A stretch of 54,836 nucleotides of DNA, taken from the IMG/VR virus record IMGVR_UViG_3300033747_000027, positions 1 through 54,836 of that record, one strand, 5' to 3'. The notes beneath the pieces were generated by a model, which did no database searches, had not been told where the DNA came from, and saw only the letters and a list, made by a program, of their open reading frames with translations. Made by a program: the position numbers and the translations under genes. This document shows, in pieces, positions 665-54,836 of this stretch; position 1 is the first letter of the stretch, and the number at the start of each line of letters is the position of its first letter. This stretch comes from a virus. Taxonomy: Duplodnaviria; Caudoviricetes.

Positions 665-1381
665 TTAAAGTTGCTTTCTGGTAATCTTTCCTTTTATTGT
701 ATAAAGGTTAAGAATTGATTCTTTCGGAATAACAGTGTCCCCTTTGAAGTTCGGATTGGATGCTCTAAGGATAATTTTGTCCTCATCATCATGAGGATAA
801 AGCAATTTTACTGTCTTCATATTATTAGCAATCTCGTTTGTGATTATCAAATAAGCTTCACCCCAAAGTATTATATCTGGATTATCTACCTTTTTAACTG
901 CAACAATTTCACCGCTAGCGTAAGTTGGGAACATGCTGTCTCCCCATACAGGGAGGTAGGCAGTACAATCATTAAATGGCTTAAAATCTACGTAAAACTC
1001 TGGCTCTTCCATAACGTCGGTAAAGCTTTCTTTTATTGATGCTGTAATGTCTATATCATAATAGGGAACAGCCTTTATAGTTGTGGTATGCAGAAGTTCA
1101 GGTGGTAGTTTGTCAATATCAGGTAAATAATCTTCATTTATCATTTTACCCTTCCCGGTGACAAGCCAACCTGAATTTAGTTCTTCAAACGCGTTTGATA
1201 TATCCTGAATTATATCATAGGAAGGTTTGGCTCCATCTTTCTTCAACCGATTAATTTTTTCAGGCGAATCATATCCAAGGTTCTTTTTTGCAAATTCAGA
1301 CACATTCTTAATGTTGTAGAATTCAATTATTTGCAAAATTCTTTCAAAGAAGTTTGAGTTATTTTTCAATTTTGTTTGCAT
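665..1381 (-). CDS. CI-like repressor (HTH plus S24 autopeptidase)
   Basis: N-terminal HTH with WLVTGKG; GDSM serine motif and VK lysine; LRASNP; divergent from a Cro-like gene. Confidence 0.9.
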   Translation of the reverse strand: MQTKLKNNSNFFERILQIIEFYNIKNVSEFAKKNLGYDSPEKINRLKKDGAKPSYDIIQDISNAFEELNSGWLVTGKGKMINEDYLPDIDKLPPELLHTTTIKAVPYYDIDITASIKESFTDVMEEPEFYVDFKPFNDCTAYLPVWGDSMFPTYASGEIVAVKKVDNPDIILWGEAYLIITNEIANNMKTVKLLYPHDDEDKIILRASNPNFKGDTVIPKESILNLYTIKGKITRKQL

Positions 1382-1455: not shown

Positions 1456-1501
1456 AAAAAACGGGAGGCAATCCACGACGGCAATCTGAAAATTGCCTCC
1501 C
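1456..1501. terminator. Hairpin GGGAGGCAAT...ATTGCCTCCC in the cro leader; followed by a U-tract on the - strand
   Basis: Perfect 10-bp inverted repeat at 1463-1501 preceded by an A-run. Confidence 0.55.
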
Positions 1502-1549
1502 TACTTGATTATTCAATCAATAAGATTCAATAACCAATATTCAAATATA

Positions 1550-1828
1550 ATGAATAAACAGAATGTAAATCCAAAAATCCGCCCAAATGTTGAAAATCTA
1601 CCATTTGTGGAGTATTACAATGCGCTAAAGGATGAGCCAAAAACAAACCCCAACAATCCATTAACACCGCTTGACGAGTTTCTTTTTGTTGCTGCTCAAA
1701 AAACAGGGAAACACCCCGGGAGCATTCGTAGGTGGGCATATGGCACAGCTAAACCTAACCTTCTGGAAAAACAGGCAGTGGCCAGGCTCCTCAAGTGTGA
1801 TGTAGAACCTCTTTTCCCTGAAAATTAG
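1550..1828 (+). CDS. Cro-like HTH protein
   Basis: SIRRWAYGTAKP...VARLLKCDVEPLFP XRE-type motif; first gene divergent from CI; ATG at 1550. Confidence 0.75.
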   Translation: MNKQNVNPKIRPNVENLPFVEYYNALKDEPKTNPNNPLTPLDEFLFVAAQKTGKHPGSIRRWAYGTAKPNLLEKQAVARLLKCDVEPLFPEN

Positions 1829-1833
1829 GCATT

Positions 1834-2013
1834 ATGAAACCACAAAACAGATCAACTGATGCAAGCCTAACCTCTAAAAGGAGTCAATTCATCAAGTCTA
1901 TGGGCGAAGAGGCTTATTTGAAATCGTTCGAAAATCATCTCAAAGAGCAGCAGCTGACCAACGAGCAAAAATTTGAAGAGTACTACAGAACCAGACAAAC
2001 AATCATCAGCTGA
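1834..2013 (+). CDS. Small hypothetical protein (59 aa)
   Basis: Hand-translated MKPQNRSTDASL...QTIIS; exactly fills the gap between cro and the LuxR gene. Confidence 0.55.
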   Translation: MKPQNRSTDASLTSKRSQFIKSMGEEAYLKSFENHLKEQQLTNEQKFEEYYRTRQTIIS

Positions 2014-2014
2014 C

Positions 2015-2566
2015 ATGAAAAACATTGAATTTTACATTACCCCAAAAGGAGACGTTATGATTCACTCTGAGAAAGGCGTTAGACAGCTCAAAGTAAGCGA
2101 TAGGCAGTTCATCTCATCAATGATGAACATTATAGATGAATTCTATCCCCAATCATTAACAGCTTTATCAAAAGTTTATGAGAAGCTGAAGTCAGTACCT
2201 GGGTTTTATGAATTTCACATCGCTCGCAGATTCATCAAATGCAATTTTGGAAAGTATGACAGTATATTGGATATTGACCAGTTCGGGAGCCTGAATTTTG
2301 AGGAAATAGAGTGTCCGCTTAGGGGAGAATGTCCGGTTGAAGGAATCGTTTGTAAGCCGAAGTTCAACTCTAAGCTTACAGATAGAGAACTTGATGTAAT
2401 GCAGCTCTATTATGAAGGAATTAAACCGGAGGAAATAGCTGAACAAACATGCCTCTCAGTATCAACAGTCAAAACCCACAAACGAAATGCATTCCGAAGA
2501 GTGAATGTTCACTCAATAGCTGAATTCTTTTCCTACGCAAAACAGCACAATTTATTCGAACATTAA
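2015..2566 (+). CDS. LuxR-type HTH transcriptional regulator with Cys-rich linker
   Basis: LTDRELDVM...EEIAEQTCLSVSTVKTHKRN GerE motif; CPLRGEC...C cluster. Confidence 0.85.
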   Translation: MKNIEFYITPKGDVMIHSEKGVRQLKVSDRQFISSMMNIIDEFYPQSLTALSKVYEKLKSVPGFYEFHIARRFIKCNFGKYDSILDIDQFGSLNFEEIECPLRGECPVEGIVCKPKFNSKLTDRELDVMQLYYEGIKPEEIAEQTCLSVSTVKTHKRNAFRRVNVHSIAEFFSYAKQHNLFEH

Positions 2567-2650
2567 CAGCACAGCCCTGCGAAGCGTCGCAATGGTGTTA
2601 AGAACATATTTTTTCAACTCGCTTATCTCAACTCAAATTAACAGTGCAAA

Positions 2651-2962
2651 ATGGATGATAAAATTGACAAAAAGGTAGAAAAGGCTTTTGCAATTGGAAT
2701 ACAAGTAGGAGTCATCAATCTAGCCAAAGAGCTTGGGCTCATAGAAGAAAACATTAGTGAAAAACAAGCAAATACAATCTATGGAGAAAAACAAGTGAAA
2801 GAATGGCGCAGAAAGCGCTGGATAGTCGGTTATCCATCCGGCAATAAAACAAGAGCAAAGTATTACTACAAACGATCTGAATTAGAAACCGCAAGCCGGA
2901 TGCTTGACATGCAAAATGTTATACCGGCCACAAAAATCAAGCAAATTATAGAAAACAGATAG
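2651..2962 (+). CDS. Hypothetical DNA-binding protein, possibly excisionase-like
   Basis: Short winged-HTH-like segment ISEKQANTIYG...VKEW...YYYKRSEL. Confidence 0.45.
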   Translation: MDDKIDKKVEKAFAIGIQVGVINLAKELGLIEENISEKQANTIYGEKQVKEWRRKRWIVGYPSGNKTRAKYYYKRSELETASRMLDMQNVIPATKIKQIIENR

Positions 2963-13680: not shown

Positions 13681-14388
13681 ATGCCACTAAATAAATCAAA
13701 AGGAAACATGTACGAATGGATTACCCACACTTGGAATCCATTAGCTGGTGAATGTCCTCACAGATGTAGTTACTGCAGTACTAATAAATTAATGCGATAT
13801 CCAGCTATATTAGAAAAATACAGTGGAGATCCTCGCTTGTCCGGACACGAACTTCTATGCAGCCTGGGAGAGGGAAACTTTATATTTGTGGCTGCTCAAA
13901 ACGATCTGTTTGCTGAAGCTATTCCGGACACCATAATCAAGAGGATTCTAAACCATTGCCGGAAGTTTAATAACAAGTACCTATTCCAGACAAAAAACCC
14001 AAGAAGATTATTCGACTTCGAATTTGAGCTTGCCGGGCTTGATTTTGTCCTGTGTACTACCATTGAGACAAACCGATTCGATCCAGAAATAATGAATAAC
14101 TGCCCCGATCCAGAAATAAGAGCTGATATGATGAACGAGCTTTGGCATGAGTTCAGAGGGATTGAATTAAAAAACTATGTCACCATTGAACCGATAATGG
14201 ATTTTGATATGGAAGAAATGGTTGAAATGATTGAAACCTGTTTGCCAGAACAAGTAAACATCGGCGCGGACAGCGGAAACAATAACCTTCCTGAGCCATC
14301 AAAGGAGAAGATTCAGGCACTTACAAAGAGGCTTGAGGTATTCACTACTGTGAAACTGAAAAGTAACCTTAAAAGGATAATGGATTAA
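13681..14388 (+). CDS. DUF5131/Gp37Gp68 radical-SAM-like protein
   Basis: TWNPLAGECPHRCSYC (CxxxCxxC), DLF, QTKNP and EP motifs. Confidence 0.8.
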   Translation: MPLNKSKGNMYEWITHTWNPLAGECPHRCSYCSTNKLMRYPAILEKYSGDPRLSGHELLCSLGEGNFIFVAAQNDLFAEAIPDTIIKRILNHCRKFNNKYLFQTKNPRRLFDFEFELAGLDFVLCTTIETNRFDPEIMNNCPDPEIRADMMNELWHEFRGIELKNYVTIEPIMDFDMEEMVEMIETCLPEQVNIGADSGNNNLPEPSKEKIQALTKRLEVFTTVKLKSNLKRIMD

Positions 14389-15441: not shown

Positions 15442-15717
15442 AAATAACGTTGAGTGTTTGTGGAGTGCGTGAAATATCTACTACTGTTGATTAGAAAGAA
15501 TAACTTTAAAATACATAAGTAATGAGCGAATTTGAAAAAGAACATTTAGAACTTATACAAAGTAATTGCTTTTGGGCTGGTTACTTGATTGATTTACCGA
15601 AAGATGAAGCGTGGAGATTAGCTAATGGAATAGTGGATGAAATAAAGTTTGCAATACAGCAAGCGAATGGGGCTGAACAAAGCACCGACCAAGCATTACA
15701 TAAACATAGTGTTATGC
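15442..15717 (-). repeat. Giant attC-like site of the distal cassette
   Basis: TAACGTTGAGTGTTTGTGGAGTGC (15445-68) pairs with GCATTACATAAACATAGTGTTA (15693-714) using G.T pairs on the + strand. Confidence 0.7.
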
Positions 15718-15893: not shown

Positions 15894-16647
15894 CGAAAAA
15901 TGTATGTTTTGTAGCGTGAAATATGCACTACCGTTTATTCGAAGCACAAAATAAAAAACAGAAGGGAAGGAATTTTTAAATTTTAAATATATGACTTGTA
16001 TAGTAGGTTTAATTGATAACAAAAATAAAAGTGTTTTGATTGGTGGCGATTCAGCCGCTGTTTCTGATTCAAATATTTTTATAAGAAAAGATGCGAAAGT
16101 ATTTAAAAACTGTGATTTTGTGATTGGATGCACTTCTTCATTTAGAATGATTCAACTTCTAAGGTATTCATTTAAGCCACCAAAAGTTGAATCGAAAGAC
16201 GTTTATGAATATATGTGTACCGATTTTATAAATGCAGTTAGAGAATGCTTTAAAGAAGGTGGATATTTGCAAAAATATACCGATGGAGACGAAAGGGGAG
16301 GAACTTTTTTAGTTGGCTATAAGAATAGACTATTTAAGGTTGAAAATGATTTTCAAGTTGCTGAAAATATGAACGGTATTGATGCTTGCGGATGTGGTCA
16401 AGATTTTGCTCTTGGTGCTTTGTATTCATTAGTAAAACACAATATTTCGACAAATGATAAAATATTAAAAGCATTGGAAGCGGCTGAGTTTTTAGGCAAT
16501 GGTGTACGAAGACCATTTACGCTACTTGGAACTTAACAAAACGGTTTTGAAAAAACCGAAGTGCGCAGGGGTTTTTTATTTCCTCAATTACGCAGAAACG
16601 TTGATTAAATGAACGATACAGCTATAAAATATACATGGTGTTATACC
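15888..16647 (-). repeat. Giant attC-like site of the proximal cassette (loop contains the peptidase gene)
   Basis: TAACGAAAAATGTATGTTTTGTAGC (15891-915) pairs with GCTATAAAATATACATGGTGTTA (16621-43). Confidence 0.7.
15991..16536 (+). CDS. HslV/proteasome-beta-like Ntn peptidase
   Basis: N-terminal M-T-C-I-V-G (Thr nucleophile), GGDS, K at about position 36, GCG...ALGAL. Confidence 0.78.
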   Translation: MTCIVGLIDNKNKSVLIGGDSAAVSDSNIFIRKDAKVFKNCDFVIGCTSSFRMIQLLRYSFKPPKVESKDVYEYMCTDFINAVRECFKEGGYLQKYTDGDERGGTFLVGYKNRLFKVENDFQVAENMNGIDACGCGQDFALGALYSLVKHNISTNDKILKALEAAEFLGNGVRRPFTLLGT

Positions 16648-37509: not shown

Positions 37510-37848
37510 TTATGATTCTTGAACATTAACAGGAGCTCCCCAGTAGACATCATAAGTAGTCAAGTCGATTGCGTCCGCTGATATCTCTTGAATAGCGGCT
37601 TCGGTCCATTGATTAAATAGTACTGGAAAATCAGAACTATCATCGTCCTGATATAACTTGCAATCGACCATCAAACCGGCATTATCCGGAACGCCAATTA
37701 CTCCGGCCGTTACATTTGCCTTCGGTACAATAAACAGAGTAAAATGTGTTCCATTTTCCAACTTAAAACCATTTGTCAGGTCTGTAATTTTTTTATGAGA
37801 CGATATGCGCCCTGCGGCCATTTCTGATGATACAAATCCTTTATTCAT
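37510..37848 (-). CDS. Hypothetical phage protein
   Basis: Downstream of the portal gene; ends YDVYWG. Confidence 0.65.
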   Translation of the reverse strand: MNKGFVSSEMAAGRISSHKKITDLTNGFKLENGTHFTLFIVPKANVTAGVIGVPDNAGLMVDCKLYQDDDSSDFPVLFNQWTEAAIQEISADAIDLTTYDVYWGAPVNVQES

Positions 37849-43850: not shown

Positions 43851-43939
43851 AACTATATTCAAGGGTTAAAGATTAAAGCCTTGAATATAAAAATTTTCAG
43901 CTACATATATGTTTATTGTTCTTTGTTTATTTATACTAC

Positions 43940-44053
43940 TAATGCTTTATCATGTGCTTTATACTATGCTTTGTACCGTGCTTTGTTAAAATTTGACAGG
44001 GCAGATTATTTGCTCTATCAAGTGCTTTATTAAAATTTGATAGAGCAAAATTA
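43940..44053. repeat. Iteron-like array (possible origin or relic of a replication gene)
   Basis: TGCTTT at 12-bp spacing (43943, 43955, 43967, 43979); about 30-bp direct repeat at 43978/44022; 13-bp perfect inverted repeat at 44009-21/44037-49. Confidence 0.75.
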
Positions 44054-44206
44054 ATAATTACCTCTTTAGGCTAATTTGCAAAATTGATTTTAAGGCTGTT
44101 TTTAGCCACTTAAATTTTGCGCATGATAGTTTTGTCATCTTTGAGATAAAAATTGAAATACGGTCAATTATGGGCTACCAAAATGCAAATAACGTTTGCA
44201 TTTCTA

Positions 44207-48784: not shown

Positions 48785-49901
48785 AAGCTTCTAATTTTTC
48801 ATATAATTCACAAAACCATTTATGAAACTGCATAGGATATTCTGATACTGACAGGGTTTCTTTTGTCTCCGGAGAAAGGATAATATATTGAGTTGGACCA
48901 CTACACCCGAACTCTCCAATGTCACAATTGATGAATTCCTGTAAATTTTGGCCGATGAAATCATCATCATCCCAAAGCACCGCAAGGGTACGGTCAAACT
49001 CAACCATAGCCCTACCGTCATATTCAAATTCACCTAAAGAGTCTCTATCCTCCGAATAGTCAAATCTCCCAAGAGAATTGTTTTCCATTAATGAAATGCC
49101 ACTAACGATTACTGATAGAAGCTCTTTATCCTTGTTATTTAATGATTTATTGGGAGTCATACACTTCTCAAGGAGTCGTTTTGAATCGACTTCAATATTG
49201 TTTATCTCTCTGAACAACTCTGGTATTCTCCCGTCTGTGTACTCTTTAGCTAAATCCTTGCACTGTTCATCGAGTTCATCATTGTATAATTCCTCGGGGA
49301 GCCAACATTCAACTATATAATCATAGTCTTCGTTATCTCCAGGCACATTGATATACTGAGATTGAGAAAATAAAGCCACAAACTCTTTGAATATCCCAGC
49401 CATTGTAGAAGACATATGGTCGATAAATTTCAAAGGCAGAAATACAAACTGATCCGGAAATTTGGATGTAGCATAAACAGTAAAAAATAAATGTCCTCCA
49501 TCTCCTTCGCAAGCATCAATATTCAGTTCGTGCGTAGATGGAATCGAAGCATCTAGTTCTTGATAGATCCTGAAAATGTCAGTATAATGATTTCCGGTAA
49601 GTGTGGTTTTAAAATCCTTATTCAGCAACTGACAATAGTTTTTTGCTGAATTGAACAGGTATTTTACACTGTCTTCCAATTTAAGGTTGTGTTCACGGAA
49701 CATCCTAACTCTTTCGCTCGACGAATGAATGATTGAATTGAAAGTTTCATTCAGAATACTGGATCCAATACTACAGCCGGAGGAGAACGCCTCTTTTGAC
49801 GTTCTCTGACTCCGTGTTGTATCTGTGACCTGTTTTTTTCTTGCAAGAATACTCGCCCTAAAGCCCGGTGAAATTCTTCTATGTTTCGTTTCGATTTGCA
49901 T
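48768..49901 (-). CDS. PRTRC-associated protein (protein F position)
   Basis: Lies between proteins C and B; likely ATG at 49901. Confidence 0.6.
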   Translation of the reverse strand: MQIETKHRRISPGFRASILARKKQVTDTTRSQRTSKEAFSSGCSIGSSILNETFNSIIHSSSERVRMFREHNLKLEDSVKYLFNSAKNYCQLLNKDFKTTLTGNHYTDIFRIYQELDASIPSTHELNIDACEGDGGHLFFTVYATSKFPDQFVFLPLKFIDHMSSTMAGIFKEFVALFSQSQYINVPGDNEDYDYIVECWLPEELYNDELDEQCKDLAKEYTDGRIPELFREINNIEVDSKRLLEKCMTPNKSLNNKDKELLSVIVSGISLMENNSLGRFDYSEDRDSLGEFEYDGRAMVEFDRTLAVLWDDDDFIGQNLQEFINCDIGEFGCSGPTQYIILSPETKETLSVSEYPMQFHKWFCELYEKLEAYEQHN

Positions 49902-50661: not shown

Positions 50662-51807
50662 TTAAACGGCAATCATCATTGGCATAATTAGGATTGTAAG
50701 AGAGTGATATTCATCTCCTTCATCGTAAACTGGTGAAATAAGAGCAGCTGTGTTTGATTCTCGCATTGTGATTCTAACTTCTGGAGTATCAATAGCATTT
50801 AGACATTGGAGTAGAAACTCGCTCTTAAAACCGATCTCAATTAATTCAGTGGACGAATACTCAACAGACATTTGCTCTTGAGCTGACATTTGGAAATCAT
50901 CATCTTTTCCACTTACTGTTAAGTTTTGATCTGAAATCGAAAGGCTAACAAGAAGTGAGCTCTTATTGGCAAAAATGGATGTCCTTTTCAATGCTCCATT
51001 AAAGCTCTTTACATCTGCTTTAACTTCCTTGTCATTGTCTCGTGGAATTACCGCTCTGAAGTTTGGATAATTGCCTTCTATCAAACGGTACACTATTTTA
51101 GTATCGCCAAACATGGCCGTCAAATTTCGACTTCCTATTTGTAATTCTATAGTATCTATTCCATCTGCGAGTTCGGAAATAATCTTACCAAACTTCAACG
51201 GCAAAACAATATTGAAATCATCTAAGTCAGTATTGAATACTTCGTAAATACCCATCATATTGGAGTTGGTAGAAGTAAAGGTCAATTTACCTTCCTTACT
51301 CTCCATAAGCACGCTATTCATGATAGGCCTCAATTCATCGTGACCTGCAAATCCGATAACCTTTTTTATACCATCAACCAAAACATGACTTTCAAGTGTA
51401 ATTGGTCGAATCGTTTCTCCTGCCTTTTGCTGAATAACAGAAAAGTCATCGTTTGATATTACTGGGATTCTGTAGATTCCGCTTTCATGCTTCAACGTTG
51501 CATTTCCAGAGCTTCCTTTTATTTCTACATCAATTATTAACGGTTGTTCAGGGAGAACCTTTAAACCATCAAGCATTATCTTGTGCTCGATTTGGAACTT
51601 ACAATTTTCCATCGACTGAGAAACACACTCGATCGTTTTAGTAATATTACCCTCTCTGTCCGCACCAGTGACCGATAAAACTCCATCATTAATTTCAAAC
51701 AAAAAGTTGTCGTGACAAGGTATTAAGCTTTTATTGCTTACGACCTTTCCCACTGCTGTCAGCTTATTCAGCAGTTCATTTCTTGATACTGTAATTTGTC
51801 CATTCAT
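50662..51807 (-). CDS. dnaN: DNA polymerase III beta sliding clamp (phage copy)
   Basis: DELRPIMNSV, RLIEGNYPNFRAVIP, IGFKSEFL and ILIMPM motifs. Confidence 0.93.
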   Translation of the reverse strand: MNGQITVSRNELLNKLTAVGKVVSNKSLIPCHDNFLFEINDGVLSVTGADREGNITKTIECVSQSMENCKFQIEHKIMLDGLKVLPEQPLIIDVEIKGSSGNATLKHESGIYRIPVISNDDFSVIQQKAGETIRPITLESHVLVDGIKKVIGFAGHDELRPIMNSVLMESKEGKLTFTSTNSNMMGIYEVFNTDLDDFNIVLPLKFGKIISELADGIDTIELQIGSRNLTAMFGDTKIVYRLIEGNYPNFRAVIPRDNDKEVKADVKSFNGALKRTSIFANKSSLLVSLSISDQNLTVSGKDDDFQMSAQEQMSVEYSSTELIEIGFKSEFLLQCLNAIDTPEVRITMRESNTAALISPVYDEGDEYHSLTILIMPMMIAV

Positions 51808-51832: not shown

Positions 51833-54454
51833 TTAAATTGCTATTTTATCGATTGCATCAAAAAGTGTAGGCATATCCACGTTTTGTTCAGCTCCTCGGC
51901 AATATGAAACGCCGTCAAGGAAATAACCAGGAGCTAGTTCTATTCCATAACCTATTCGCCCTTTTAGAATAGCTCTGTAAGGAGTGGTTCCAATACCCAT
52001 AAATGGATCCAAAACTATTTCTCCGGGATTGCTCATCTGCTCGATCACACGATCAGCTATATCGAATTGCATAGGACATAGATGCATCTCTTTTCCTTTG
52101 CTCCATTGTGATCCGTTCAAGGTCAGCATTCGGGTAATGTCTGTCCAGACTTCATCAGACCAGCTCTGAGGTTGCAGCAACATGAATCCGGATGGAAGCT
52201 TGCCATGAAGCTCCAGTGTTTCCGCAATGGTCACCACCTCTTCAAAGTCCCAAATCTCGTTCAAAGTGTATTTTCGGAACCACTTGAAAATCTTATCAGG
52301 CTCCATGGATGCGATCTTTTGAATTTCTTCGGGTTTCATTCCACGGTTACCGGAAGATCTTGTGTAACCAGCTGCATCCATCTGCCATCGAGCCCGGGAA
52401 TATCCGTTTGGGTTTTCGGTACCTTCTTTCCTGATGGTCTTCTTTTCCTTCACGACAGGAATGTCAGCGTAGGCGTTTGCCGTGTCGGTTGCCGGCTTAC
52501 GGAAGTATAATAAATACTCCGGCATACCTACTCCCATTTTAGTACCGTCTTTACATTGTTCAGTCCATCCTAAACGGTAGGTTTGATTATTCTCACGTAC
52601 AACATCTGTGACAATTGTTTTCATTCCCATGAAAGCAAAACCATGATTGATATAATGCCTGATGCAATCAGCGTGAAAAGGATAAACCGTCTGAACTCCC
52701 ATGCCGCTCAATCCCATCGGGACAATCCGATCCTTTACATGAATAGCTGCTATTCGCCCAGGCATTAGTTTTTTGTACAGATTAGGTGTTAGAAAGTCCA
52801 TTTGTTTAAAAAATTCCTCATTACTCTCTGAATGGCCGAAATCGGAATAATTTGGAGAGTATTCATACTGTGTTGAGAAAGGAATTGAAGTCAATATCAA
52901 CCCAACTGAATCATCTTTGATCTTGTTGTGACTTGACAATTCTTCTACATTATCGTTATTGATTACCAGAAACTTTCGACCTTCAATAACAACTCTTTCA
53001 ACTCCGATCTTTCGGGTAAGTGCCTTTGACATATCAGAATGTGAGAGGCCATATTTTTTAATTATTTCTGTCATTTTTTGCACCATTTTGTTGTGATTCT
53101 TCCATTTTGTTTCGAGAGATTTACGAACGCCCCTTTCGGCTTCTGTGTAGATCAGATCAACCCTGACCTTGTTCTTTTGCAGAAATCGTTGAAGTCGGTG
53201 AACGGATTGAATAAAGTCATTAAACTTGAAACCAATTCCGAGGTATATTGCCCAAGAACAATGCCTTTGAAAGTTACATCCTGAACCTGCAATTACCGGC
53301 TTTGCTGCAAGCTCTCGAAACCGACCATAGGTAAAGTCTAAAATTGCCTGTTCGCGCTTTTCGTAGTCCTGAGAACCGTAAATTGAAACTACATCCAGTA
53401 TGGCCTTTTCAATTTCATGGCGTTCTTTTTCTAAGTCGTGCCAGATTATACGGTGTGCGTTGATGTCCTCTTCACGAAGCTCCATCATCTTTGCAATCCG
53501 ATCATTTAGGCTCTCCCGCTTTTCCTTTGCAGCTCCTTGCAGTCCTCCAGCCGAAACATCATTGAACATCTTAAATTGACGGCCGTCTTTACCGGTACCG
53601 GCTTTTGTGTGATCGGATGGAATTTCGTGCCACCTTAAATCCAACTCAGGGAGAATGTAGCCTTTGTCATCTTCTGGGTTCATGGTTATATCGGATGGCC
53701 GATTGACGAATATCGCCCAGCTGCTCACCCATAGCCAAAATTCCTCTTCTTTGTGAGCGTGAAGTGTTAATTTGTCAGCTTTGGTTGAATCACGTTTAAA
53801 GAACCTAGTTTTAGCTTGACTTACATCCATTACCCCGAGAAAATCAGCATAGGCCAATAATTCAATGTAATCATTTGGGGAAGGGGTAGCAGTGGCAACA
53901 AAACGATATTTCACCTGATCCTCTCCACGACGGCAACCCATAGGCCCTCCGTCTCCTGTAAACAATCGCATGAACTCCCGGAATGTCTTTGAACCGCCCA
54001 AGCCTCTTAGTATGGATGCTTCATCCAATGAGGCAACATTGAATAATGACGGGTTCAACTTCCCGTCTCTAATGCTTTCGTAATTGGTCAGGTAAATACC
54101 ATCTCCTTCAAGCTCTGAATTTCGCCTGATGAATTTTGGCAAGACTTCCCATCCTAAAATATTCCGGGAATCTTGAACAAATTCCTGCCGGATATTAAGA
54201 GGGCAAACAATCAACCCCTTCCCACCTCCTGTCTTTTCCAGGGTTATTCTGACCGCTTCCAGTTGTGTAACGGTCTTATGCAAACCAAAAGAGGCAAAAC
54301 AAGCCCTTCTACCGCCTTCGACCAGCCACTTCACCATGATCTTGTTATGTGGCTTCAGTCTCGTGTTGATCAGATCAATATCCAAATCAAACCCCTGTTT
54401 CGGTGCAATCTTAATCTTGTTATGTAAAAATTGATTATACTCTGTAATTTGCAT
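51833..54454 (-). CDS. SNF2-like helicase fused to an N4/N6 DNA methyltransferase
   Basis: N-terminal FGLHKT, DEAS and ATATP; C-terminal TSIPF, HLCPMQ and DPFMGIGTT (beta-class motif order). Confidence 0.85.
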   Translation of the reverse strand: MQITEYNQFLHNKIKIAPKQGFDLDIDLINTRLKPHNKIMVKWLVEGGRRACFASFGLHKTVTQLEAVRITLEKTGGGKGLIVCPLNIRQEFVQDSRNILGWEVLPKFIRRNSELEGDGIYLTNYESIRDGKLNPSLFNVASLDEASILRGLGGSKTFREFMRLFTGDGGPMGCRRGEDQVKYRFVATATPSPNDYIELLAYADFLGVMDVSQAKTRFFKRDSTKADKLTLHAHKEEEFWLWVSSWAIFVNRPSDITMNPEDDKGYILPELDLRWHEIPSDHTKAGTGKDGRQFKMFNDVSAGGLQGAAKEKRESLNDRIAKMMELREEDINAHRIIWHDLEKERHEIEKAILDVVSIYGSQDYEKREQAILDFTYGRFRELAAKPVIAGSGCNFQRHCSWAIYLGIGFKFNDFIQSVHRLQRFLQKNKVRVDLIYTEAERGVRKSLETKWKNHNKMVQKMTEIIKKYGLSHSDMSKALTRKIGVERVVIEGRKFLVINNDNVEELSSHNKIKDDSVGLILTSIPFSTQYEYSPNYSDFGHSESNEEFFKQMDFLTPNLYKKLMPGRIAAIHVKDRIVPMGLSGMGVQTVYPFHADCIRHYINHGFAFMGMKTIVTDVVRENNQTYRLGWTEQCKDGTKMGVGMPEYLLYFRKPATDTANAYADIPVVKEKKTIRKEGTENPNGYSRARWQMDAAGYTRSSGNRGMKPEEIQKIASMEPDKIFKWFRKYTLNEIWDFEEVVTIAETLELHGKLPSGFMLLQPQSWSDEVWTDITRMLTLNGSQWSKGKEMHLCPMQFDIADRVIEQMSNPGEIVLDPFMGIGTTPYRAILKGRIGYGIELAPGYFLDGVSYCRGAEQNVDMPTLFDAIDKIAI

Positions 54455-54519
54455 AGCGTCTGATTTTGACGCCCTGCGTTGCGAAGAAAAGTGTTAAGAA
54501 CAGTAGTGAAAATTTGGCA

Positions 54520-54604
54520 TAAAAAAAGCCGGAGCACGAACTTTCGTTCATGTCCAACTCGCTTAACTCAGTGCAATAATAAAAGCATTTTTTTAAAATT
54601 GCAA
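54520..54604 (-). promoter_or_regulatory. Promoter followed by an intrinsic terminator in the leader of the replication operon
   Basis: TTG (54602-04)-N20-TATTATTG (54574-81), then AGTTGGACATGAAC-GAAA-GTTCGTGCTCCGGCT and a T-tract on the - strand. Confidence 0.6.
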
Positions 54605-54620
54605 CTTATACCGAAATTAT

Positions 54621-54836
54621 TTATTTCAATAAGTCCAAAACCTTTCTGTTAACTTCGTCATATATAGAGTAATCAATCTCAATATAAATATCTGCCATTT
54701 TATAATCGTTGTTGACGTGTCCAAGGCAAAAGTCAATATCAGCTTTCGAAATTCCGGCTTTGTTCCTTGCCAGGCTTGCCCATGTATGACGAGCCCAATT
54801 TGTGGTGATCTTTGGATACTCCAACGTTTTGCAAAT
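54621..54836 (-). CDS. Tyrosine integrase, C-terminal part (ORF open to the window edge)
   Basis: WARHTWASLAR...LGH...IY box II motifs. Confidence 0.85.
   Translation of the reverse strand: MCKTLEYPKITTNWARHTWASLARNKAGISKADIDFCLGHVNNDYKMADIYIEIDYSIYDEVNRKVLDLLK

Follow-up and report, generated by a model that had tools for sequence, protein, structure and literature searches.

We describe here a pair of leaders, L and R, that mark the two early control regions of a temperate phage of Bacteroidota, and whose shared sequence blocks change together across related phages, such that the two copies match within each genome. We propose, as a tentative reading held with a little less than even confidence, that the RNA of the early leader (L) would pair in trans with R-type leaders and relieve the termination of transcription within them. 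The sign of this effect is suggested by geometry, in that complementarity to a ‘seed’ and to the base of a terminator stem reproduces the layout of the engineered small transcription activating RNAs (STARs); the transcripts themselves, and their pairing in vivo, we infer from the anatomy, conservation, co-variation and thermodynamic feasibility that are set out below.

Two early control regions

The stretch of DNA analysed (the window) is a complete IMG/VR provirus record of 54,836 bp, with an estimated completeness of 97%. Shine-Dalgarno sequences are absent from it, and its promoter boxes are of the Bacteroides type. The left end carries an ORF of 151 aa on the minus strand, a CI-like repressor with an S24-peptidase domain (665-1381, minus strand) and a cro-like HTH ORF (1493-1828, plus strand). 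A 10-bp inverted repeat at 1463-1500, in the intergenic region between repressor and cro-like ORF and just 5' of the latter, could be an operator or a leader hairpin. There follows the gene for a LuxR/GerE-type (sigma region 4-like) regulator of phrog_10300 (1973..2566, plus strand; Pfam GerE E=1.8e-14, phrog_10300 E=1.5e-57), which sits immediately 5' of L; homologues of it precede L in 6 of 11 other genomes, and the protein used as a query against the viral collection returned no relatives.

L is the untranslated gap of 84 nt between this regulator and orf103 (2567..2650, plus strand), and carries a hairpin, P1, as well as blocks 1-4 (see below). The first gene 3' of it, orf103 (2651..2962, plus strand), stands in that position in 12 of 12 genomes and encodes a small basic protein, possibly of winged-helix type; its predicted model is weak (pLDDT 51.7, with all fold matches at E>=0.08), and neither a family search nor a comparison with solved structures found a relative. 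SbcC-like and RecT-like genes lie downstream.

From about 17.6 kb to the right end, the genes of the window run leftward. A fusion of SNF2 helicase and DNA methylase (51833..54454, minus strand) heads the leftward replication operon, with DnaN (50662-51807, minus strand) as the second gene, 3' of the fusion. Relatives of this helicase and N6/N4 methylase fusion (51833-54454) are present in 317 phage records, at up to 70% identity, and their hosts are very diverse (Mycobacterium, Flavobacterium, Pseudomonas and cyanobacteria). The R leader is the 166-nt gap between helicase and integrase (54455-54620, minus strand). Beyond it lie the C-terminal 71 residues of a tyrosine integrase (phrog_1; 54621..54836, minus strand), a fragment that is 73% identical to the integrase of the related record G002; the end of the record cuts the integrase gene (int) about 1 kb before its start, so that the true right end and the attachment site are missing from the window.

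Sequence blocks shared by L and R

As the preliminary description had reported, four blocks are found in the same order and on the same strand in both leaders, exact at every position given for them: block 1, GCCCTGCG (2574..2581 in L and 54471..54478 in R, with a third copy at 37809); blocks 2, GTGTTAAGAACA (2595..2606 and 54491..54502), and 3, CAACTCGCTTA (2615..2625 and 54555..54565), each restricted to these two sites; and block 4, CAGTGCAA (2642..2649 and 54569..54576, with one reverse copy at 49258), all being read on the plus strand. Since the blocks share a strand and the operons that flank them run in opposite directions, an RNA of L would be complementary to an RNA of R, in keeping with the earlier supposition.

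Blocks 2 and 3 are spaced by 8 nt in L and by 52 nt in R, and it is within those 52 nt that a hairpin and an A-run sit; L lacks exactly the terminator hairpin of R, a claim that is borne out here. Block 3 of L is also complementary to the 5' base of the terminator stem, as had been proposed, with 6 nt within the stem and 5 nt before it. The set of four fares less well as a set: blocks 1-3 stand, but block 4, the right copy of which extends over the -7 promoter box and into the very beginning of the transcript, has no L/R match in the relatives G002 and G007.

Taken within the window alone, the match is modestly beyond chance and thus suggestive (p ~0.004). Against first-order Markov versions of the window, with 54455-54620 as the fixed query, 4 of 1000 simulations reached the observed score of 42 when the score favoured long exact blocks, and with a cruder sum of lengths none of 300 reached the observed 39 (maximum 35). 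It is the conservation of the blocks in relatives, described below, that makes a chance origin untenable.

Anatomy of the R unit

R opens with a promoter of the Bacteroides type (54574..54605, minus strand), in which the -7 box TATTATTG at 54581-54574 is separated by a 20-nt spacer from a -33-like GTTG at 54605-54602. The corresponding -7 box of relatives is a perfect TAnnTTTG, the -7 element consensus of the Bacteroides primary sigma factor as quoted in PMC7366714. Next comes an intrinsic terminator, T_R (54521..54560, minus strand), made up of a stem-loop (54526-54560) and a U-run from 54527 down to 54521; the hairpin has 15 pairs and a GAAA loop, is followed by seven U and folds at -18.8 to -19.1 kcal/mol, and the same shape persists despite pair changes in 8 related units (types A to C). 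A small hairpin with 5-bp arms, identified by eye from the sequence (54456..54472, minus strand), ends 1 nt 5' of the helicase start codon and shares 2 nt of its 5' arm with the complement of block 1.

The same succession was found in the loci that were read, where the -7 box is followed by 8-17 nt that are single-stranded, an intrinsic terminator, a leader of 60-130 nt and a small hairpin that reaches, or contains, the start codon of whichever gene comes first leftward (DnaN or helicase). Start-codon hairpins folded in 11 of the 11 relatives parsed. Upstream of the hairpin, an exact L-complementary block of at least 7 nt is present in 7 of these 11, and by eye abuts or overlaps the 5' arm in those seven, the remainder being shorter or wobble-dependent. 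Judged by their sequence, the two places at which L could pair thus each fall at the 5' arm of a hairpin expected to impede expression. Inspection by eye of the stretch between terminator and start codon, in the window and in types C and F, found no consensus -7 box; if none is there, the leftward operon would depend on read-through.

How widely such units occur was followed through their neighbouring genes. The integrase of G002, used as a query, returned 85 relatives from the viral collection (80 were kept), nearly all at the extreme end of a provirus, and this phage family is common in human gut samples; within 230 nt past the int stop, 77 of the 80 loci have a box TAnn[T/A]TTG followed by CA. 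Relatives of the helicase (291 found, 80 kept) have an integrase just upstream in one case of the 80, L041, which is G002 itself, and none of the 24 upstream regions read at helicase-relative loci was R-like. An Rfam scan of the window gave no matches at gathering score, with only a chance-level hit near L (E=0.16) and none at R. Repressor operators at R were considered and rejected, as only AT-rich 8-mers are in common.

The L leader and its hairpin

Hairpin P1 (2575..2595, plus strand) has block 1 as its 5' arm and AGCG as its loop. When 11 L leaders are compared, pairing holds in 90.9% of cells, both sides have changed in 6 of the 8 pairs, and the covariation score was reached by none of 500 shuffles. 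This co-variation points to a role at the level of RNA, on the plus strand. The non-Watson-Crick cells (7 G-T and 4 C-A among 88 cells) give, in their excess of G-T over C-A, a weak pointer to the same strand.

An alignment of orf103 proteins fetched 12 loci, and 11 of them have the L architecture, in the order P1 with block 1 as its 5' arm, block 2, an A-rich spacer, block 3, a short conserved motif and the start codon. A distant relative retrieved by pattern scan (G001; ~68% DNA identity across the early genes) has kept the L blocks between its regulator and orf103 homologues, although the flanking coding DNA has diverged. Scans with block 2-3 and block 1-2 patterns returned one locus (L083) from the viral collection, and none from the genome or metagenome collections. 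We also rejected a leftward promoter within L, since types B, C and F do not keep its box.

L and R change together across relatives

The set of relatives comprised 15 records, the window included, available whole or as far ends. An L/R pair on the same strand was found in 12 of them (the window, G002, G007, G013, G014, G015, G016, G018, G019, G020, G021 and G026), each at least 93% complete; G017, G024 and G025, which are 74%, 88% and 70% complete, showed no such pair in their 14-kb end pieces. The block sequences fall into six types (A-F), and L and R change together and match within each genome, so that the test proposed in the preliminary description, joint co-variation in related phages, has a positive outcome.

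The extent of this matching can be gauged from the longest exact match between the 5' unit of R (30 nt past the -7 box) and the complement of L. Within a genome or type it spans 7-17 nt; across the type groups {A,B,C}, D, E and F it is 4-7 nt, save for a single case of 12 nt, R of G018 (type E) against L of G021 (type F). In 12 of 12 rows, the partner predicted to form the strongest duplex was of the same type. A comparison of types D and F is particularly instructive: the terminator stem and blocks 1 and 2 are nearly the same, orf103 is 79% identical and the recognition helix of the regulator is the same, whilst the ~12-nt seed has been replaced jointly with its counterpart in L.

Spacing follows another pattern, since blocks 2 and 3 lie 14-20 nt apart in L and 52-130 nt apart in R. 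RNA pairing tolerates such variation, which a promoter or an array of protein sites hardly would; a reading of blocks 2 and 3 as a promoter was rejected on the range seen in L.

Some changes are uncompensated. The R copies of G029 and G067 are one base off, with L (G029) or the copy beside the attachment site (G067) unchanged, and four records have another R variant, again with the att-side copy unchanged. Records whose R seed bears a single change include G024, G030, G031 and G066. The mismatches between L and R (n=68) do not mark the strand on which pairing would take place: 20 could form wobble pairs in L(+).R(-), 14 could do so only between the opposite strands and 34 are transversions; this wobble-pair test gave no strand bias, and the duplex of the opposite strands is equally or more stable in 10 of 12 genomes. 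A search among named phages turned up Bacteroides phage Versailles, in which a regulator homologue is set in a different layout that lacks an L leader, and no other named phage of the family.

Pairing geometry

The longest L-complementary stretch straddles the 5' edge of the terminator stem in 11 of the 12 genomes parsed, taking in 3-10 nt ahead of the stem and 3-11 nt of the stem itself (5 and 6 in the window). When R was cofolded with its cognate L, 5-6 of the 6 outermost stem pairs were broken in 11 of 12 genomes, the remaining one being G016 (2 of 6), where the seed hardly enters the stem; with one L of another type per genome, none of the 6 was broken in any of the 12.

R has the layout of a STAR target, namely a single-stranded 5' region and then an intrinsic terminator upstream of the operon, and L has that of the trans-acting RNA, being complementary to the linear region and to the 5' side of the stem. 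Antisense attenuation is a different arrangement, in which pairing promotes the terminator and the antisense lies within or opposite the same leader; here, the modelled pairing removes the base of the stem, and L lies in another operon.

Further copies and the circular form

The system has members beyond those visible to the preliminary description. Additional units of the R type are found at the attachment site. Among 10 records examined, five (G007, G018, G020, G021 and G023) have a junction tRNA gene, 25-45 nt, a type-matched seed (the complement of block 3) with its own terminator, and then int; the remaining five end at the start of int. The tRNA was called by Aragorn in G007, G020 and G021, and its 3' part was recognised by eye in G018 and G023; the loci behind two of these records are L119 (G007) and L132 (G023). 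The attachment core in relatives is the 3' end of the tRNA. On the sequence, transcription of the host tRNA would end in a seed-bearing RNA, or would enter int if the terminator were opened. As the window ends inside int, an att-side unit is not visible there.

A scan of 40 type-F records with a 15-nt pattern, allowing up to 2 mismatches, found up to four copies (tRNA-side, R, a second leftward unit and L), and the matches with 0 or 1 mismatch all lie on one strand per record. The second leftward unit, ~5.8 kb beyond R in type F, is a full series of promoter, seed, terminator and leader before another leftward gene; in G020 (at ~47576 in the orientation of the window) the base of the stem has changed and the seed is the same. 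The att-side and the second leftward copies are both of the same type as L. The window itself showed no second R unit. Eleven records from the type-F scan are at least 90% complete, and L is present in 8; as to the other three, the L region of G043 is beyond the contig end, and G047 and G048 are without orf103 in their last 15 kb.

The joined contig G053 (L230) represents the circular form, and runs from the L leader through 4.6 kb to an att-side unit and through a further 1.5 kb to R; the arms of the prophage map are thus neighbours in the phage genome. The separation of 52 kb given in the preliminary description is therefore right for the prophage map, but not for the circular phage, in which L and R lie a few kb apart and flank the module of int, attP and immunity. 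G053 has three copies only, one of them near the attachment core. We rejected attL/attR or arm-type sites of the integrase as an identity for the blocks: L is 2.5 kb inside the left end and R is inside of int, and the copies do not bound the element.

A model for trans-acting relief of termination

Bringing these observations together, we suggest how L might act on R. L would be the leader of the rightward early operon, 3' of the repressor-controlled cro-like and regulator genes, and the promoter of R, beside the integrase, would be followed ~45 nt on by the intrinsic terminator, the leader and the hairpin at the start codon of the helicase and the replication genes. The L RNA, or a processed piece of it protected by P1, would pair in trans with R transcripts as these are being made; contact would begin with block 3 at the single-stranded 5' end and proceed into the base of the terminator stem, such that polymerase reads through, and blocks 2 and 1 would then pair beside the start-codon hairpin. 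In this way the replication operon would respond to the repressor-controlled early promoter while lacking an operator itself.

We prefer direct RNA-RNA pairing because it makes the fewest assumptions in accounting for spacing, co-variation and the identity of the tracts. What counts against it is that antitermination in trans must win a race of ~30 nt of transcription, which is kinetically demanding, and we know of no natural case of trans antitermination at an intrinsic terminator. A wider reading, possible if doubtful, is that of a regulon, in which one short early-leader element, in a widespread family of temperate gut phages of Bacteroidota, would open through pairing in trans the terminators that gate integrase, replication and a further leftward operon, and would then free their start codons, with at least six types of 12-17-nt seed that resemble immunity groups.

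Premature termination brought about by antisense RNAs is a classic mechanism; relief of an intrinsic terminator by an RNA acting in trans is, to our knowledge, so far confined to engineered devices. In the literature searched, we came across neither an account of this system nor one of a natural RNA that acts in trans as antiterminator at an intrinsic terminator. If the model is true, L and R would be a natural counterpart of synthetic STARs, and their co-evolving pairs would represent the same design as used in nature and a source of orthogonal parts. It would also explain how a leftward operon with a consensus promoter is coupled to the repressor switch, in a group, the temperate Bacteroides phages, for which we are aware of almost nothing being known about gene control.

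Alternative readings

One alternative reverses the direction. R and the tRNA-side units would give RNAs of ~45 nt (a 5' seed and a terminator hairpin), made constitutively in the lysogen; by pairing with block 3 of whatever L transcript arises, these would keep the early operon silent, forming a type-specific layer of RNA immunity. This would make sense of a consensus-type promoter with a strong terminator at once behind it, of a seed that begins a few nt from the expected 5' end, of the presence of two or three units per genome and of seeds that have diversified into types, as immunity determinants do; short RNAs from always-on and promptly terminated phage promoters are, in addition, described in PMC7547250. 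It sits less easily with the position of block 3, 25-60 nt upstream of the orf103 start and away from the initiation site, and would leave unexplained why the complements of blocks 1 and 2 are kept 3' of the terminator, by the start-codon hairpin, and why the seed complement always runs into the stem. We regard the reversed direction as unlikely; it is compatible with activation by L, and both may coexist.

A second alternative, which we judge to be quite unlikely, takes the blocks as sites, in DNA or in RNA as it is made, at which a protein of the phage binds (a Q-like antiterminator, an excisionase-like protein or the integrase). That protein would act at all R-type units, and L would serve for autoregulation or as a decoy. 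Protein antitermination units, as PMC7547250 sets them out, do have a constitutive promoter with a terminator directly behind it; L is flanked by the genes of a DNA-binding regulator and of a possibly winged-helix protein, and one copy of the blocks adjoins the attachment site. Yet neither neighbour has changed as the seeds have: the recognition helix of the regulator is the same in types B, D and F, in which the seeds differ, and orf103 retains its 79% identity between D and F. The repressor-cro intergenic region holds no copy of a block, the spacing of the blocks differs several-fold between L and R, and the three copies of G053, one near the core, are unlike arm-type sites. A protein that recognises RNA would be unable to read L, the transcript of which is the complement; the same-sense sites that mark all regulated transcripts of N/nut and Q/qut systems are not what is seen here, L being the complement of the R-type units.

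That the blocks are a duplication relic, a possibility raised in the preliminary description, or short homology bordering an exchangeable int-attP-immunity module, and have no regulatory role, is scarcely credible: L and R do flank the lysogeny module in the circular genome (G053), but the coding DNA of relatives is ~67-70% identical and the sequence between blocks unrelated, whilst blocks of 8-17 nt are identical within a genome and different between types, tracts that are too small for gene conversion.

Comparison with known systems

The preferred reading, relief of termination by L, can be set beside several systems already described. STAR activators bind the 5' side of a stem in trans and block formation of the terminator, as laid out in bioRxiv 10.1101/022772; their target is a linear 5' region and an intrinsic terminator before a gene, and the geometry of R is the same. 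A 5' hairpin stabilises the activator according to the same preprint (bioRxiv 10.1101/022772), and P1 here lies 5' of blocks 2 and 3. STARs, however, are engineered, and the putative activator here would be part of an mRNA leader, with extra pairing blocks near the start codon. The passages of bioRxiv 10.1101/022772 cited here state that no natural sRNA activating transcription was known.

Immunity of the satellite phage P4 (CI RNA, seqA/seqC) likewise has replication genes behind a leader that terminates early in the lysogen, and an RNA complementary to sites in the leader that decides on termination, in the account given by PMC4825925. The P4 antisense causes termination and is processed from the same leader, whereas L belongs to another operon and its geometry predicts relief; the sequences are unrelated. 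The lambdoid PR'-tR' region and StxS, as presented in PMC7547250, share with R an always-active promoter, immediate termination in lysogeny, a trans-acting short RNA and an operon opened by read-through, but it is the Q protein that gives read-through there; here, the 10 ORFs scanned with Pfam and PHROGs included no member of the N or Q families, and the partner sequence is in another transcript.

IsrK of prophage Gifsy-1 offers a further likeness, in that a short terminated RNA and a read-through form pair in trans and switch on downstream phage genes (as related in PMC4825925); in that case, however, the two are isoforms from one promoter, and the effect is on translation. The relatives' tRNA-int unit may be compared with the terminator at the end of Tn916, which in the description of PMC11658703 insulates the integrated element from host transcription and is overcome by antitermination; element and mechanism are different, and the comparable tRNA-int unit lies outside the window.

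Other repeats in the window

Two further sets of repeats were noted. A repeat of ~45 nt is present three times (14331-14375, 15467-15511 and 15914-15958), the copies being 62-100% alike, and copies 2 and 3 (15467-15511 and 15914-15958) occupy gaps directly before the starts of plus-strand ORFs; these may be a repeated regulatory site of the rightward genes. Among the leftward genes, the gap 43863-44206 holds two adjacent repeats of 37 nt (43967-44003 and 44011-44047), each with an internal palindrome.
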